From the NCBI GenBank assembly GCA_048939625.1, contig JBHLPH010000001.1, positions 1 through 64,000 of the forward strand: DNA of 64,000 nucleotides, in the 5' to 3' direction. Made by a program: the position numbers and the translations under genes. The notes beneath the pieces are model-generated. The model saw only the letters and a program-made list of their open reading frames with translations, was not told the DNA's origin and ran no database searches. Positions 13,043-27,314 of this stretch are shown here, in pieces. Every line of letters begins with the position of its first letter. The first letter of the stretch is position 1. This DNA comes from Promethearchaeota archaeon. Lineage in GTDB: Archaea > Asgardarchaeota > Hermodarchaeia > Hermodarchaeales > Hermodarchaeaceae.

Positions 13043-15076
13043 TTGAGTGAGCCCTCAATGTCTTCAGAGACGATTCTTCAGTCATGGTTTAAGAATTCCA
13101 TTCAACCGAGTCAGACTATGCTATGGGTCTCAGCAGTTGCACCAGATACTTTCCAGGGAGATCCATACATTTTAGAAAAACTTCTCAAACGCCCCCTGGA
13201 AATTCCGGACGCAATGGGACAACAACGAGCTCGCGCACGTTATATCTCTTGTTTACTCGCTCGAGCAATTACGGCTTTGAATCCGTCTCCCATGCAGATA
13301 GCTGCTTTTCTCCATGAATTTCATTACTTCCAAAATCCTGACACTCTTGTTCACAAACCACTTCCAGATAAACTCCTTTCGCAAATCAAGAACCTCATTC
13401 GTGATGAATTTGACCCCACCGCGTATTGGCAATATGAGCTTCGAACTCTTACCCAGCACTTTCAAGAGGGATTACACATTCTCCGAACACTCTTTAAAAC
13501 CCGGTTAAGTAAAAAAGAGACACCACAATTGAATTCCTTCTTTGTAAATGAACATGAATGGTGGGGAACCAACTATTACAACGAAGCCAATCTAGTTAAT
13601 ATCCATCCCCCCTTCCTTTTCCTTCCCGCTGTAAGCAAAAATCTTGTACTCCGAGACGCTGTCCGAGTGTTTCTTCCCAGGAGTTTTCGAAGCGCAATGG
13701 ATGTTCAAGAGTTTTCGAACATAATGGTTTCCGAACTCCTTAACCCCACCGACCAGCAACTTTGGTCAACCATCAAATGGAATGGAAGCCAGCCTACACC
13801 TGAACACCAAGAATGGATTTCCACAATAGCTAGTTTGACTCCGAAACTTATTGAGAAAAATCGACTCACGACTCTGTATAAACGGCTTTCAAAGATTGAC
13901 ACTCGTGTGTCACAGGTCCCCACAGGATCTTTCACTATCCTCACTCAACTCGAGCTCTCCGAGAAACTCCCAAGTCCCAGCCTCACAAAAGTCCAGCAAA
14001 CCATATTACTTCATCTTGCAAGAAATCCCTTAGCAAGTGAACGGCAACTCGCAAAAACCACCCAACTAGCCCGCGGAACCGTGAACAGAAATCTCCTAGC
14101 CTTTCAACAACAATTAGGCCTCCTTGTTCCAGGAGAGATGAATTATCATAAGATTGGACTTACACCACTACTTCTGAGGACCCATTCCCTTCTTAGTACC
14201 AAGGAAGAACTTTCCAAATTATCTGACCTGCGCGATGAACTAGAAGCTTTTCCGTATTGTATCCGCTTACATGCTCCTTCATACCAAACCCAGACCATTA
14301 TCCATGCAATTATTTCCTTGCCTGAATCCGCACTAATACACTTTTGTCAATACATGGAACTCTGGAAACAAGAAAGCGGAGTTGCTAGTGAGTTGTATCG
14401 AATTAATCGATTTGAATGGGGATGGGAATTCGATTCCTGGAAAGAATTTCTACCAACTGAATGGAAAATCATGGCAAGTAGCCACCTTCGATCAGAGAAA
14501 TCAGAAACTAGCCTGCATACATCATTGGATTATACAGAACCAAGAATTAAGCTCACTCGTGAAGCTTTACGCATTTTGTTGATTCTACAACACGATATGC
14601 GGATAAGCCAACGTCAGTTAGCAACCCGTGCTGAAACCTCCGTGACCACTGCAGCAAACCATTACAATAAACTAATCCCCCACGTCATAACGCCATTTTT
14701 TACATACGCAAATCCACCTCTCCCTGAGGGATTTATCACTGCAGTGCACAGCTCTTCAATCGAATCCTTAAGGCAATTCTTAGACGGCATTCGTCTACTC
14801 CCCGCATATCAGGCATGGCATCTCTCCTCTCTAGATTCGGAGGAATCAGCCTCAGTTCTACTCAATATTAACTTACCTCAAGGAGGTCTCATCCCCTTTC
14901 TAACAGTCTTCCCTGAAGTTACAAGCTATTATGATTTAATCCCCACTTTACCAGTTCTTACATCCCGATCACTCCCCCAAATACATGGGTTACCACTCGC
15001 CCTTTTCAAAACCGTCGGACAAGAGTGGATGTGTTCGACAAGCCTTCTCGAGTCACTATTTAGGCTTCAATCCTAA
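13043..15076 (+). CDS. Large regulator-like protein: N-terminal helical domain(s) plus tandem Lrp/AsnC-type wHTH modules
   Basis: Two HTHs: LARNPLASERQLAKTTQLARGTVNRNL and LQHDMRISQRQLATRAETSVTTA; NYHKIGL linker typical of Lrp. Confidence 0.7.
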   Translation: MSEPSMSSETILQSWFKNSIQPSQTMLWVSAVAPDTFQGDPYILEKLLKRPLEIPDAMGQQRARARYISCLLARAITALNPSPMQIAAFLHEFHYFQNPDTLVHKPLPDKLLSQIKNLIRDEFDPTAYWQYELRTLTQHFQEGLHILRTLFKTRLSKKETPQLNSFFVNEHEWWGTNYYNEANLVNIHPPFLFLPAVSKNLVLRDAVRVFLPRSFRSAMDVQEFSNIMVSELLNPTDQQLWSTIKWNGSQPTPEHQEWISTIASLTPKLIEKNRLTTLYKRLSKIDTRVSQVPTGSFTILTQLELSEKLPSPSLTKVQQTILLHLARNPLASERQLAKTTQLARGTVNRNLLAFQQQLGLLVPGEMNYHKIGLTPLLLRTHSLLSTKEELSKLSDLRDELEAFPYCIRLHAPSYQTQTIIHAIISLPESALIHFCQYMELWKQESGVASELYRINRFEWGWEFDSWKEFLPTEWKIMASSHLRSEKSETSLHTSLDYTEPRIKLTREALRILLILQHDMRISQRQLATRAETSVTTAANHYNKLIPHVITPFFTYANPPLPEGFITAVHSSSIESLRQFLDGIRLLPAYQAWHLSSLDSEESASVLLNINLPQGGLIPFLTVFPEVTSYYDLIPTLPVLTSRSLPQIHGLPLALFKTVGQEWMCSTSLLESLFRLQS

Positions 15077-15114: not shown

Positions 15115-16350
15115 TCAGATCCAGTCGCCTGTTTCGAGTTTAGTGGGGAGATAGGTATCAGCTAAGAATTCAAAGCCGTGACTACTCAGCGCTTGAATTT
15201 CTGCCTTTTCTTTGCGTTTAACCATTAGGTGGATATCAGCTACCCACTTTGGGTTTTGCGCAACGAAAGGTTCTTCCATAACTGCCTTTGCACGTTTGAT
15301 ATCTTGTGGAGTCATGCGTAGACGACACTCCTTGGGAATATTGTATTGGTCGAGGTCTCTACCCAGAACACCGAGTAATTTCAAGTCTGGTGTGGCTAGG
15401 AAAGGGCTTTCATAACTCAACCGCTTACTGCCCCGAAGATAGACGCTATGAATATAATGCCCGAAGGGATCTGCGTCGACAAGAGTGAATGCGGGAAGCT
15501 TCAATTCTTTCGATAGGCGTCGAGCAAAGATGCGACTTGCGATATCAGGAGAACCTTTAGCAGTCAGAAGGATGCAGGGATATTTATTCCACCATTTAAC
15601 CTCACTAAGCCGAAGCATGGCTGCATCCTTTTCAACAATAAGGAGGAATTCAGCATCCGATTCTACGATTTCCACTCGATCCAAGAAAGGTGTAATCGAC
15701 CAACCACCGGTGCCCAGTTGGGTGCAATCAATCCGATCCCCACTATCTTCCAGTACTAATCGACCTAATACCGTGCCTTTCGCACTAGCAACTATATGAG
15801 TTGATTCACGGTTCGTGCCAAGAAGGGGTCCAATATCATCGATAGTCGTGTCTGATTGACGTTGATCCTCGAAGAGTTTAACATCGTTATAGAAGATTTC
15901 TCGTTTCGTCGCATGAATGTTCTTTTCTAAGAGTTCGTGGACGATTTCTAAGACCCGGATAAGTCGGGTTACATCCTTGGCAGTGCGAAGATTCCCTAAT
16001 GAGCGTATTGTTGTTTTTTCGCCAAGTAACAAGAGATCGTTGTCTTCATCCCAAATGATGTTTCCGCTTCCACGTAATGGGAGTTCAAGTGAAGGAGGAT
16101 TCCCCTTCCCAATTTCTTTGATGAGAGTGCGCATTAGCTTATGGATTTCTTCATGTAACTTTTCAGTGTCTTTTTCAGTGACAAGTTTTACACCGCGCGG
16201 TAATTTTGCACCGGTTTGTGTATCTTGAAGGTTTTTACGGAGTTTTTGTACAGCAGCAAATTTATCATTGACAGAACGTTCGGTACCGGGCAGGGATTCC
16301 TCGAGTGTTGAATTTTGAGCCGCTCGACGTCGTCGGCTTCCACTACTCAT
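15115..16350 (-). CDS. top6A: DNA topoisomerase VI subunit A (Spo11 family)
   Basis: TKREIFY (catalytic Tyr), VEKDA, TAKGSPD, VDADPFG Toprim DxD, KAEIQAL. Confidence 0.96.
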   Translation of the reverse strand: MSSGSRRRRAAQNSTLEESLPGTERSVNDKFAAVQKLRKNLQDTQTGAKLPRGVKLVTEKDTEKLHEEIHKLMRTLIKEIGKGNPPSLELPLRGSGNIIWDEDNDLLLLGEKTTIRSLGNLRTAKDVTRLIRVLEIVHELLEKNIHATKREIFYNDVKLFEDQRQSDTTIDDIGPLLGTNRESTHIVASAKGTVLGRLVLEDSGDRIDCTQLGTGGWSITPFLDRVEIVESDAEFLLIVEKDAAMLRLSEVKWWNKYPCILLTAKGSPDIASRIFARRLSKELKLPAFTLVDADPFGHYIHSVYLRGSKRLSYESPFLATPDLKLLGVLGRDLDQYNIPKECRLRMTPQDIKRAKAVMEEPFVAQNPKWVADIHLMVKRKEKAEIQALSSHGFEFLADTYLPTKLETGDWI

Positions 16351-18236
16351 TCTGCAGCCACCTCCTGTGTTTCTTCCATTCTAGCCTTGGCTGAAGGCTC
16401 GATTCCAACAACTTTGGTGATGACTTCTTCCAATTGCTGTGGGAGCGCTTGCAGTTGTTTCTTAGTTATTTTTGAATCGGTTTGTTGAATGTTCACAATT
16501 GATTGGCCAACAATGCGTGAATATCGAAGAAGTACATCTGCCCGTCGTTCTTGTTCACGGCGTGCAATTACTCGAACAATATGGCGACGAAGTTTTCGAC
16601 CTACTTCTTCAAAAGCAAGTTTCAATTCACGAAGCAGGATATCATCCTCGGCGAGAGCTTGCTTGGATTGGGCTTTGAAGATAAGATGGACAAAAGGACC
16701 AACTACATTAGCAAAGAGCCGGACGGAGCCAGTGGGAAGGCCATTACTGGCAACATCCATGCGGTAATTACGCCAATTTACGGATGCTGCTGCTTTCCAA
16801 ATTGCACAATCTGAATTATCTCGAAGTTTGGGAGTTCGATTCACGAATCGGTATAAAACTCCAACTCCGGACTGATTGGAAAGTGCAGAATCATAAACCG
16901 CGGCGACTTCTACTGCAAAAGCCAGACCTTTACTGCTGGTGGGTGGTCGACTAACTGCTTCAACAAATTCCGCTTTGAAAATCTCTTGTAAGGTTTGCCT
17001 GATCACTTCTTCGCCCACTGGAACTACAGTTTCGGTTGGGGGAGCATAATATTTCTCAGAAATGAAGCTGGCATAAAGAGCTTTAATTTGGGCTTGCGTG
17101 AGTTGCTTGGGCGAATGCTTGGATGTAATCGGATCGGTGCGCATACGCTTCGCAGCTTTTGCTAAAATCTGTTGTGCTTTTCTTCGGCTTAATCTGCAAT
17201 AACTGTTGGCAAGAAATTCAGTGAGTGTTTTATTGGTGGTATTTCGAATGAGATCCTGGAAATCTCCGATACTTGTTGATGCTGGATGAGGCATAGCATA
17301 ACTGGGTTCACGTACGAATTCGCGAACTCGCCTTGGATAAATGTAAACATCGCCATATGGGTCGATGAAGATTATATTGACATGGGCATTCAAGTAAGAG
17401 GTTTGACGGACGTATTCATCTGCATACCCGCGTCGATAAGGAAGATTCAGAAAAGAGAGTTGAAGGTAGGTCCCATGATTGAAAGACATGGGAATTGCAG
17501 TTTCTTTTAAGAGGTAATCTTTTTTGTTTTTACTCGTAGTGAAAAAGATTGATGTGTAACCTTGACGTTCAGCCGGGTGCCGCGTGGCTACAATGATCGG
17601 TCGACCGGTTGTATTTTGCGCATCACTAAACGCACTTGAAGCTCCAAAGCCTTGGCTTCCTCGTGTTTGACAGAGTTTGAAGCTTTTGCTACTAGCGAGG
17701 TAGAGCCCATATTGTTGTAGGTCGCGTTTTGTCATCCCAATTCCGGTGTCCAAGGACTCAAAGCTATACATGAGGAGATTTCTTCCTGCGACCTCCGAGG
17801 GAAGGATTTCTGGTTTCTCCAACTCTTGAAGAACCATGAGCAAAATAGGCTCGTGGTGGATAATTCCGCGAATTGGAGATGCCAATAGTTTAATTCGTTC
17901 AGAAATGGCTGTGGCTGAAGTGGGTCGACGAGTGGTCTTTAGCGGTTGAGGGACTTCAGGATAAGAAACAGTCTCTGGTGGCTCGTCGAGTACAATGGGG
18001 GTGGGTGTGGTCTTTTTCGATTTTGAACCACGAGTCCAATAATAGGTTTCGATGGCATCAAGGGCATTATCACTAAACTCTGCACAGTATTGGGTGAATT
18101 TGTGCATTTCCATGGAGAACCCTACAAGTTGAGTACGTTTCCGAAAGAACTCAGCGACTTCCCCACGCCGGATGACACTATTCTTTTCGGATTGGCGAGT
18201 TGGTTCTGCTTTAGCATCTAGTGTAGTTTTTCCCAT
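16347..18236 (-). CDS. top6B: DNA topoisomerase VI subunit B
   Basis: AEFF, EFSDNALDA, DTGIGM, RGSQGFG (GHKL ATPase), H2TH region, RFVNRTP; ATGA overlap with top6A. Confidence 0.93.
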   Translation of the reverse strand: MGKTTLDAKAEPTRQSEKNSVIRRGEVAEFFRKRTQLVGFSMEMHKFTQYCAEFSDNALDAIETYYWTRGSKSKKTTPTPIVLDEPPETVSYPEVPQPLKTTRRPTSATAISERIKLLASPIRGIIHHEPILLMVLQELEKPEILPSEVAGRNLLMYSFESLDTGIGMTKRDLQQYGLYLASSKSFKLCQTRGSQGFGASSAFSDAQNTTGRPIIVATRHPAERQGYTSIFFTTSKNKKDYLLKETAIPMSFNHGTYLQLSFLNLPYRRGYADEYVRQTSYLNAHVNIIFIDPYGDVYIYPRRVREFVREPSYAMPHPASTSIGDFQDLIRNTTNKTLTEFLANSYCRLSRRKAQQILAKAAKRMRTDPITSKHSPKQLTQAQIKALYASFISEKYYAPPTETVVPVGEEVIRQTLQEIFKAEFVEAVSRPPTSSKGLAFAVEVAAVYDSALSNQSGVGVLYRFVNRTPKLRDNSDCAIWKAAASVNWRNYRMDVASNGLPTGSVRLFANVVGPFVHLIFKAQSKQALAEDDILLRELKLAFEEVGRKLRRHIVRVIARREQERRADVLLRYSRIVGQSIVNIQQTDSKITKKQLQALPQQLEEVITKVVGIEPSAKARMEETQEVAAE

Positions 18237-18471
18237 CTGAGATTACCCCGCTTGGAATGAGCACCGACTAAAACCGTTAACCGTGTTGACAAGGAAGAAG
18301 AGACCTTAAATCTTTACCTCAGGGCTAGAAGGCTTCTCCGGTATCTTGAGGATACCTTGAACTGCCTTCTTGTCTCGGTTAATGGAGCTGGCGCCACATG
18401 AATTTCGCGCGGATTGAGTTTTGCGAGAGTATGTGAGGAATTTGGACACCTTATAAGCCTAATGGGGGGTG

Positions 18472-26375: not shown

Positions 26376-27314
26376 ATGCCCTCAGAACTTGAAAAAATCG
26401 ATGGCGTCGGACCCACCGTCGCCCAAAAACTCGAAGAATGCGGCTTCCGCACCATCGAAGGAATCGCCGCGGCCTCTGTCAAAGAACTTACGAGCCTTGC
26501 AGGCATCGGCGCAAGTACTGCTCAGAAGATTATCGAATCCGCCCAACGCCTTGCTAGTATTGGGCTTGAAACCGCCGATCAACTCTGGAAGAAACGTCAA
26601 ACAGTTGAACGCATCACCACTAATAGTAGAGAACTCGACGCCCTCCTGGGCGGTGGTCTTGAAACTGGTAGTATGACTGAATTCGCGGGAGCATTCCGGT
26701 CTGGCAAAACCCAGCTGTGCCATCAACTCGCCGTCAATGTCCAACTCCCCGCTGATCAAGGTGGCTGTGACGCCAAAGCTGCATACATTGACACAGAAGG
26801 CACCTTCCGTCCTGAACGAATCATCAACATGGCTCAAGCCAAAAACATCCCACCCAACCAAGCCCTCAAAAACATCATCGTAGGACGCGCCTACAACAGC
26901 GACCACCAAATGCTTCTCGTCCAACAAATCCAAGATAATCCCCAATTCGAAAAAGTTCGACTCCTGGTTGTTGACAGCCTCATCGGTCATTTCCGTGCCG
27001 AATACCTTGGACGTGGCATGCTCGCCGAACGCCAACAAAAACTCAACAAACACCTCCACGACCTCCTCCGCGTCGCCGAAATCAGCAACATCGCCGTCGT
27101 CACCACCAACCAAGTCCACGCCCAACCCGACGTCTTCTTCGGAGCACCGGACCGTCCGACTGGAGGTCATATCGTGGCGCACGCAGCGCAGACACGAATA
27201 TATTTGCGGAAGAGCAAAGCAGAACGCCGAATTGCAACACTGATTGACTCGCCATACTTGCCAGAAGGTGAAGCGTTGTTCACGATTACAGCACCGGGAA
27301 TATCTGATGCATAA
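26376..27314 (+). CDS. radA: DNA repair and recombination protein RadA
   Basis: N-terminal HhH (GVGP, GIG), GAFRSGKTQ, YIDTEGTFRPERI, LLVVDS, GRGMLAERQQKL; no intein. Confidence 0.97.
   Translation: MPSELEKIDGVGPTVAQKLEECGFRTIEGIAAASVKELTSLAGIGASTAQKIIESAQRLASIGLETADQLWKKRQTVERITTNSRELDALLGGGLETGSMTEFAGAFRSGKTQLCHQLAVNVQLPADQGGCDAKAAYIDTEGTFRPERIINMAQAKNIPPNQALKNIIVGRAYNSDHQMLLVQQIQDNPQFEKVRLLVVDSLIGHFRAEYLGRGMLAERQQKLNKHLHDLLRVAEISNIAVVTTNQVHAQPDVFFGAPDRPTGGHIVAHAAQTRIYLRKSKAERRIATLIDSPYLPEGEALFTITAPGISDA

Follow-up and report, generated by a model that had tools for sequence, protein, structure and literature searches.

The Top6A gene at 15115–16350 (-) of the window (the whole stretch of 64,000 nucleotides that was analysed, from a Promethearchaeota assembly) encodes a subunit A of topoisomerase VI (TopoVI) of the conserved, eukaryote-like Asgard type, and its product is a relative, but no member, of the eukaryotic TOP6A (SPO11-3) clade. 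We are confident in reading it as a conserved and vertically inherited TopoVI A subunit of the Asgard archaea (Hermodarchaeota/Thorarchaeota neighbourhood) that, together with the Top6B encoded next to it, very probably forms an ATP-dependent type IIB topoisomerase of A2B2 composition.

Spo11, the initiator of meiotic recombination, and the topoisomerase VI of plants both have their origin in an archaeal Top6A, and the nearest prokaryotic stand-ins for this ancestor are Asgard copies like the window Top6A. The kinship between the Asgard and eukaryotic proteins is already known, and the window gene adds a further orthologue to a family described before. Brinkmeier et al. (2022, PMC9665070) reported an N-terminal helix common to the TopoVIA of Asgard archaea and eukaryotes, as well as an additional transducer helix common to their TopoVIB. 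Top6A has also been listed among the eukaryotic-signature proteins of Asgard archaea, with the conserved Asgard Top6A as the sister group of eukaryotic Top6A/Spo11, and with extra copies of Top6A/Top6B, related to those of other archaea, in some Asgard lineages (Nat Ecol Evol 2025, PMC12680538). The same article describes a signature motif common to eukaryotic Top6A/Spo11 and the conserved Asgard Top6A. The literature search returned no biochemical study of an Asgard TopoVI.

Domain Architecture and Catalytic Residues of Top6A

The ATG-started open reading frame of Top6A encodes 411 residues, and its assignment is based on Pfam, PDB matches, an AF2 model, and the tree. The sequence-only reading had placed a Top6A here on the strength of a series of quoted motifs, every one of which is present in this frame. 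The 5Y-CAP/winged-helix domain (Pfam TP6A_N, residues 126–186, 15793–15975 (-), E 1.5e-20) contains R150 and the catalytic Y154, whose codon occupies 15889–15891 (-). It is followed by a Topo VI alpha all-beta domain (Pfam, residues 192–232) and by the TOP6A-Spo11 Toprim domain (PF21180, residues 235–405, 15136–15648 (-), E 2.4e-54), for which the genome search returned the identical span. This last domain holds the metal-binding residues E240 (in VEKDA) and D292/D294 (in DADPFG). All these residues—R150 and Y154 in the motif HATKREIFY, E240, D292, and D294—are invariant columns of a 16-sequence alignment of eukaryotes and archaea. The protein thus carries everything that defines a type IIB subunit A, namely PF04406 together with PF21180, the Tyr/Arg pair, and the E...DxD residues.

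The AF2 model of Top6A, with a mean pLDDT of 80, gives target-normalised TM scores of 0.84–0.86 to the cryo-EM chains of M. mazei Top6A, and the Foldseek comparison of this predicted model with the same protein yields an E value of 5e-28. In the model, residues 29–43 (codons 16222–16266 (-)) form an additional N-terminal helix, in a block with a pLDDT of about 83, and the predicted B-subunit-binding helix (residues 62–81) lies C-terminal to it. Since no solved plant TOP6A is among the matches, the eukaryote-like and classical types are not separable by the fold search.

Similarity to Eukaryotic and Classical Archaeal Enzymes

Both types differ in sequence similarity and in two indels. By BLASTP, the window Top6A is 47–48% identical to the TOP6A of Cryptomeria, Amborella, and Physcomitrium (372–376 bits) and 45% identical to that of the diatom Phaeodactylum, over aligned lengths of about 355–380 residues. 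The identity is 34% to mammalian SPO11, 31% to a Marsarchaeota (TACK) Top6A, and 30% to a second Top6A of the same genome, located on contig C38 (see below). A HMMER search of 1.84 billion cluster representatives ranked a plant TOP6A (P0123) third, with 395 bits, and the TOP6A of the diatom Thalassiosira fourth, with 373 bits; among the PDB sequence matches, the solved classical archaeal proteins scored 220 (S. shibatae), 145 (M. jannaschii), and 129 bits (M. mazei). P0123 is a land-plant representative, 88% identical to the Cryptomeria japonica protein annotated as 'DNA topoisomerase 6 subunit A', and served as the query from which the named plant sequences were obtained, as a diatom TOP6A used as query returned diatoms only. 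At positions aligned to the window Top6A, P0123 shows TKRDLFYTDVKLF..., KAEIQALSSFGFQYL, and YLPLKL..DWI, so that the plant motifs cited in the sequence-only reading are real.

With respect to the indels, the alignment columns of residues 6–52 of the window Top6A are filled in the Asgard-conserved copies and in eukaryotic TOP6A, and empty in the classical archaeal copies. Together with the AF2 helix at residues 29–43, they give the window protein the additional N-terminal helix described by Brinkmeier et al. (2022). Conversely, the catalytic tyrosine is directly followed in classical archaeal copies by an insert of ~8 residues, which is missing in the window Top6A (indel analysis of the motif HATKREIFYNDVKLFEDQ, within the 5Y-CAP/winged-helix domain), as well as in all Asgard-conserved copies and all eukaryotic TOP6A/SPO11 rows.

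Phylogeny of Top6A

The 68 rows of a maximum-likelihood tree were chosen among the 150 representatives with the greatest similarity to the query, and the tree was calculated with IQ-TREE under the site-heterogeneous model LG+C20+F+G4 by PMSF, with 1000 ultrafast bootstraps and SH-aLRT (support given as bootstrap/SH-aLRT). The classical archaeal copies, of which one row is named and most are unlabelled, make up one side of the tree (100/100), and the C38 copy falls among them, beside the Marsarchaeota Top6A. On the other side, the Asgard-conserved copies and all eukaryotic TOP6A/SPO11 form a clade (98/96). A constraint that unites the window-type and TACK-like clades lowers the likelihood by 60 lnL units, and the AU test rejects it (p=0.001), so that the outcome named as refuting in the sequence-only reading, a nesting among euryarchaeal/TACK copies, fails. 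The proposal that this Top6A is eukaryote-like rather than classical archaeal therefore agrees both with the identities (47–48% to plant TOP6A versus 30–31% to the Marsarchaeota and C38 copies) and with the tree.

The assignment to the plant SPO11-3 type, on the other hand, holds as a resemblance and not as a position within the eukaryotes. The eukaryotic rows, about 11 out of 26 of which are named while the others were assigned by clade membership, are monophyletic (100/98), and the window protein lies outside them. The labelled SPO11 rows belong to a mammal, oyster, tardigrade, and Selaginella, with SPO11-1 and SPO11-2 not told apart by name. The likeness to SPO11-3 specifically is accounted for by TOP6A being the short-branched eukaryotic paralogue: the plant-like look of the window protein probably follows from the descent of eukaryotic TOP6A/SPO11 from the Asgard Top6A lineage, and from both plant TOP6A and the window type having changed slowly. 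The subclade that includes the window Top6A (100/99) comprises copies labelled Thor-, Hermod-, Hod-, Odin-, Jord-, Baldr-, Hel-, and Loki-, and the row P0130 is an Asgard copy according to the genome search.

In the best tree, the sister group of the eukaryotes is the Heimdall-type Asgard Top6A of about 470 residues (97/89) rather than the window type, which is joined with the P0126 group (95/85), although this arrangement is not robust. When all Asgard-conserved copies are forced together without the eukaryotes, the cost is just 7.35 lnL units, and this gene alone does not reject the constraint (AU p=0.30). Eukaryotic TOP6A/SPO11 might consequently stand outside all Asgard-conserved copies or beside the window type, in which case the window protein would be as close to them as the Heimdall type, or closer. 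By raw similarity, the window Top6A is indeed nearer to plant TOP6A than the Heimdall-type protein is, as the latter reaches only 43–45% identity and 300–309 bits. Nevertheless, published trees and a replisome concatenation also place eukaryotes with the Heimdall clan (PMC12680538), and a position of the eukaryotes outside all Asgard-conserved copies or beside the window type, while possible, seems to us rather doubtful. The description of the window Top6A as a close prokaryotic relative of eukaryotic TopoVI-A/Spo11 thus stands at the level of the clade, but the position of nearest sister goes, insecurely, to the Heimdall type.

One further row, P0128 (367 residues, MEE9594130.1 cluster), is labelled Candidatus Hydrothermarchaeales archaeon, is 43% identical to the window Top6A, holds no classical post-tyrosine insert, and ends in DWI. 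Its branch lies between the classical archaeal side of the tree and the clade of Asgard-conserved and eukaryotic copies, and could reflect a gene transfer, mis-binning of the contig, or a genuine intermediate.

The Top6B Partner and the Operon

The adjacent B subunit announced by the sequence-only reading is a 629-residue Top6B with a GHKL ATPase and a transducer, encoded at 16347–18236 (-). Its stop codon and the start codon of Top6A share the 4 nt ATGA (16347–16350 (-)), an overlap that suggests translational coupling of both genes. A Shine-Dalgarno-like GGAGGTG (16359–16365 (-)), placed within the end of Top6B and 8 nt upstream of the ATG of Top6A, may serve Top6A as a ribosome-binding site. 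In our reading, Top6A is co-transcribed, and probably translationally coupled, with Top6B. The intergenic region upstream of Top6B (18237–18471 (-)) is the presumed site of the promoter of this B-A operon and shows an A/T-rich TTTAAG element ~60–70 nt upstream of the Top6B ATG; a scan for sigma-70 promoters and terminators, unsuited to archaea, gave counts at background level. The arrangement is not particular to this genome, as Top6B lies upstream of Top6A on the same strand in 71/71 Asgard loci with enough upstream DNA.

In Pfam, Top6B matches the transducer domain with an E value of 3.6e-34 and HATPase_c_3 only weakly, and the protein aligns to M. mazei Top6B (2q2e_B) with an E value of 7e-53, in an alignment that also spans the stretch between the GHKL and transducer domains of the latter. 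All the ATPase boxes are readable: the N-box SDNALDA (residues 55–61), G1 DTGIGM (163–168), and G2 GSQGFG (193–198). In addition, WRNY occupies the position of the WKxY motif (488–491), and the lysine in AQSKQA (522–527) falls at the conserved SK in the alignment with M. mazei Top6B. With every catalytic motif present in both subunits, the two genes specify a complete topoisomerase VI. A protein-atlas match of the window Top6B to a Streptophyta TOP6B cluster is recorded here as a lead only.

Top6B also holds an insert of ~75 residues, rich in Pro/Thr/Lys, between the N-box and G1 (residues ~64–162, window 17750–18050 (-)), which brings the spacing of these motifs to 107 residues. Since this spacing amounts to 97–124 residues in 25/25 Asgard-conserved Top6B with both motifs readable (Hermod, Odin, Frey, Jord, Baldr, and Thor), compared to about 26–31 in the Top6B of contig C38 and in that of M. 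mazei, sequence comparison indicates that the insert is a trait conserved within the eukaryote-like TopoVI-B of Asgard archaea. No mention of an insertion was found in PMC11302465.

Two other genes of the window should be mentioned. Convergent on Top6A, a 677-residue protein (13043–15076 (+)) bears two winged-helix matches (HTH_24/AsnC-type); the remainder has no Pfam match, and no link to TopoVI is evident. RadA, which the sequence-only reading had set in the same window as Top6A, is indeed found at 26592–27311 (+), but about 10 kb away and on the other strand, forming no operon with the TopoVI genes and showing no detectable link to them.

Host Genome and Second TopoVI Pair

The assembly of the window is an Asgard metagenome-assembled genome (MAG), whose 83 contigs add up to 2.31 Mb, with an estimated completeness of 87.6% and contamination of 6.3%. 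The contig of the window measures no less than 64 kb, with a G+C content that is even across the window (43–47%). Among the matches of Top6A listed, the best 120 come without exception from Asgard MAGs, which bear the labels Promethearchaeota, Thor-, Hermod-, or Hodarchaeota (81–94% identity); the closest among species-representative genomes are MAGs of Hermodarchaeota (84–90%). Altogether, 400 stretches in species-representative genomes encode a window-type Top6A, and the best 80 of these 400 come almost all from Asgard-labelled MAGs, are all of the Asgard type, and include no named classical archaea; genomes of the same genus also hold the gene. Asgard-type Top6A, 58–61% identical to that of the window, is found as well in three MAGs titled Candidatus Deferrimicrobium sp. 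(L027), Candidatus Bathyarchaeota archaeon (L031), and Candidatus Nanopelagicaceae bacterium (L047), and these assemblies are probably mislabelled or mis-binned.

The genome search revealed a second, classical-type pair on contig C38 of the same genome (G000, L003:4879–7829 (+)), consisting of a Top6B of 538 residues and a Top6A of 443 residues, which are only 25% and 30% identical, respectively, to their counterparts in the window. Given that most genomes of the same genus yield two matches, the C38 copy is not a contamination. The C38 Top6A has ~80 extra residues at its N-terminus, with weak winged-helix matches (HTH_5 and MarR_2, E about 0.003–0.006). The genome, at its completeness of 87.6%, yielded no member of the GyrA/ParC family (PF00521, DNA_topoisoIV), which leaves TopoVI, with its two pairs, as the sole type II topoisomerase family detected.

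Proposed Function and Origin

Taken together, we infer that the window pair assembles as A2B2 and has the activity and the cellular role of an ordinary topoisomerase VI. The GHKL domains of Top6B would dimerise on ATP and capture one duplex, while Tyr154 of each Top6A would cut the other duplex, forming a 5'-phosphotyrosyl link, with the assistance of Arg150 and of Mg2+ bound to Glu240, Asp292, and Asp294. The captured duplex would then pass through the break, which would be resealed, resulting in the relaxation of supercoils and the decatenation of chromosomes. This reading is best supported by the full set of catalytic motifs, the B-A order of the loci, and the presence of this copy throughout the phylum. 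Due to the existence of the second pair on C38, decatenation in the cell may not depend solely, or even mainly, on the window pair.

The coexistence of two TopoVI enzymes could also mean that they split roles, with the Asgard/eukaryote-only surfaces of the window type, namely the N-terminal helix of Top6A and the conserved 97–124-residue segment of Top6B, acting as docking sites for accessory factors, which would foreshadow the plant BIN4/RHL1 or the partners of Spo11. Such a scenario is speculative and, in our view, unlikely; if true, the Hermod-type pair, devoid of the HhH and ubiquitin-like add-ons of other Asgard lineages, would offer the least elaborate prokaryotic model of the eukaryotic TopoVI/Spo11 ancestor.

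A more radical division of labour, in which the window pair would be a dedicated maker of double-strand breaks, like Spo11 and its TopoVIB-like partner, and topoisomerase work would be left to the C38 pair, could draw on the same coexistence, on the presence of the window type in the lineage that gave Spo11, and on the unusual insert in the ATPase domain of Top6B. However, TOPOVIBL proteins are devoid of the H2TH domain and usually of the ATPase boxes, and ATPase-type motifs have been lost in most eukaryotic representatives (PMC9665070), whereas the window Top6B retains its ATP-binding boxes, the conserved lysine, and the WKxY-like motif, and hence is not a partner of the TOPOVIBL type. Moreover, the window type is present throughout Asgard, often as the sole copy, so it must supply an essential function there, and RadA is distant and not co-oriented. 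A role restricted to break formation is thus very unlikely, as the partner of Top6A is a complete Top6B.

Finally, horizontal transfer of Top6A from a eukaryote, or a contig that is itself eukaryotic contamination, might be suspected from the high identity to plant TOP6A and the contamination value of the MAG, but is extremely improbable in view of a eukaryotic clade that leaves out all Asgard copies, the wealth of Asgard-labelled stretches encoding the window type, an intron-less overlapping B-A operon conserved across Asgard, and the length and even G+C content of a contig whose Top6A gene recurs in genomes of the same genus.

The practical value of the window locus resides in the compactness of an A/B pair free of add-ons, for which the classical pair on C38 provides an internal comparison.

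Comparison with Known Systems

Compared to the conserved Asgard Top6A already described (PMC12680538, PMC9665070), the window protein belongs to the same clade, and shares with it the extra N-terminal helix and the B-A operon. The extra classical copy in its genome matches the published pattern (PMC12680538).

Unlike some Thor/Loki or Heimdall-type copies, the window Top6A is plain, with neither an N-terminal HhH arm nor a ubiquitin-like domain. Among such elaborated forms, P0121 (950 residues) and P0122 (746 residues), from Loki/Thor-labelled MAGs, add four to seven N-terminal HHH_5 helix-hairpin-helix repeats to a window-type Top6A core. Heimdall-type lineages (L084–L094; G055, G056, G052, G014, G072, and G307) hold a single Top6A of ~470 residues with an extra N-terminal domain of ~100 residues, and their sole Top6B match stands at the start of a giant open reading frame, of 3468 residues in G055 and of 2258–4156 residues elsewhere. 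In G055, this frame comprises GHKL, transducer, and HhH-like matches, followed by about 2800 residues almost devoid of Pfam matches. A Lys-tailed open reading frame of ~480–496 residues is located downstream of the giant gene and directly upstream of Top6A in these lineages.

Plant and algal TOP6A (SPO11-3) share with the window protein the motifs of the catalytic-tyrosine region and of the C-terminus (..DWI), and they are of the same length class, with the N-terminal extension and without the post-tyrosine insert. The window Top6A, however, is excluded from the eukaryotic clade and is encoded in a prokaryotic operon, overlapping with Top6B.

With respect to the classical Top6A of S. shibatae (2zbk_A), M. 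jannaschii (1d3y), and M. mazei (2q2e/9o0g), the fold predicted for the window protein is the same (TM 0.73–0.86), and the catalytic residues and the B partner are held in common, and presumably the mechanism as well. Both types differ in the N-terminal helix, found only in the window protein, and in the ~8-residue insert, found only in the classical ones, and a branch with full support (100/100) lies between them.

SPO11 proteins (yeast 8urq, as well as those of mammals, molluscs, and tardigrades) belong to the same family and to the same side of the tree, and the mammalian protein is closer to the window Top6A in identity (34%) than the Marsarchaeota and C38 copies are (30–31%). Nevertheless, their rows are long-branched. 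While SPO11 pairs with a degenerate TOPOVIBL and breaks DNA without strand passage, the window Top6A is encoded together with a complete Top6B.
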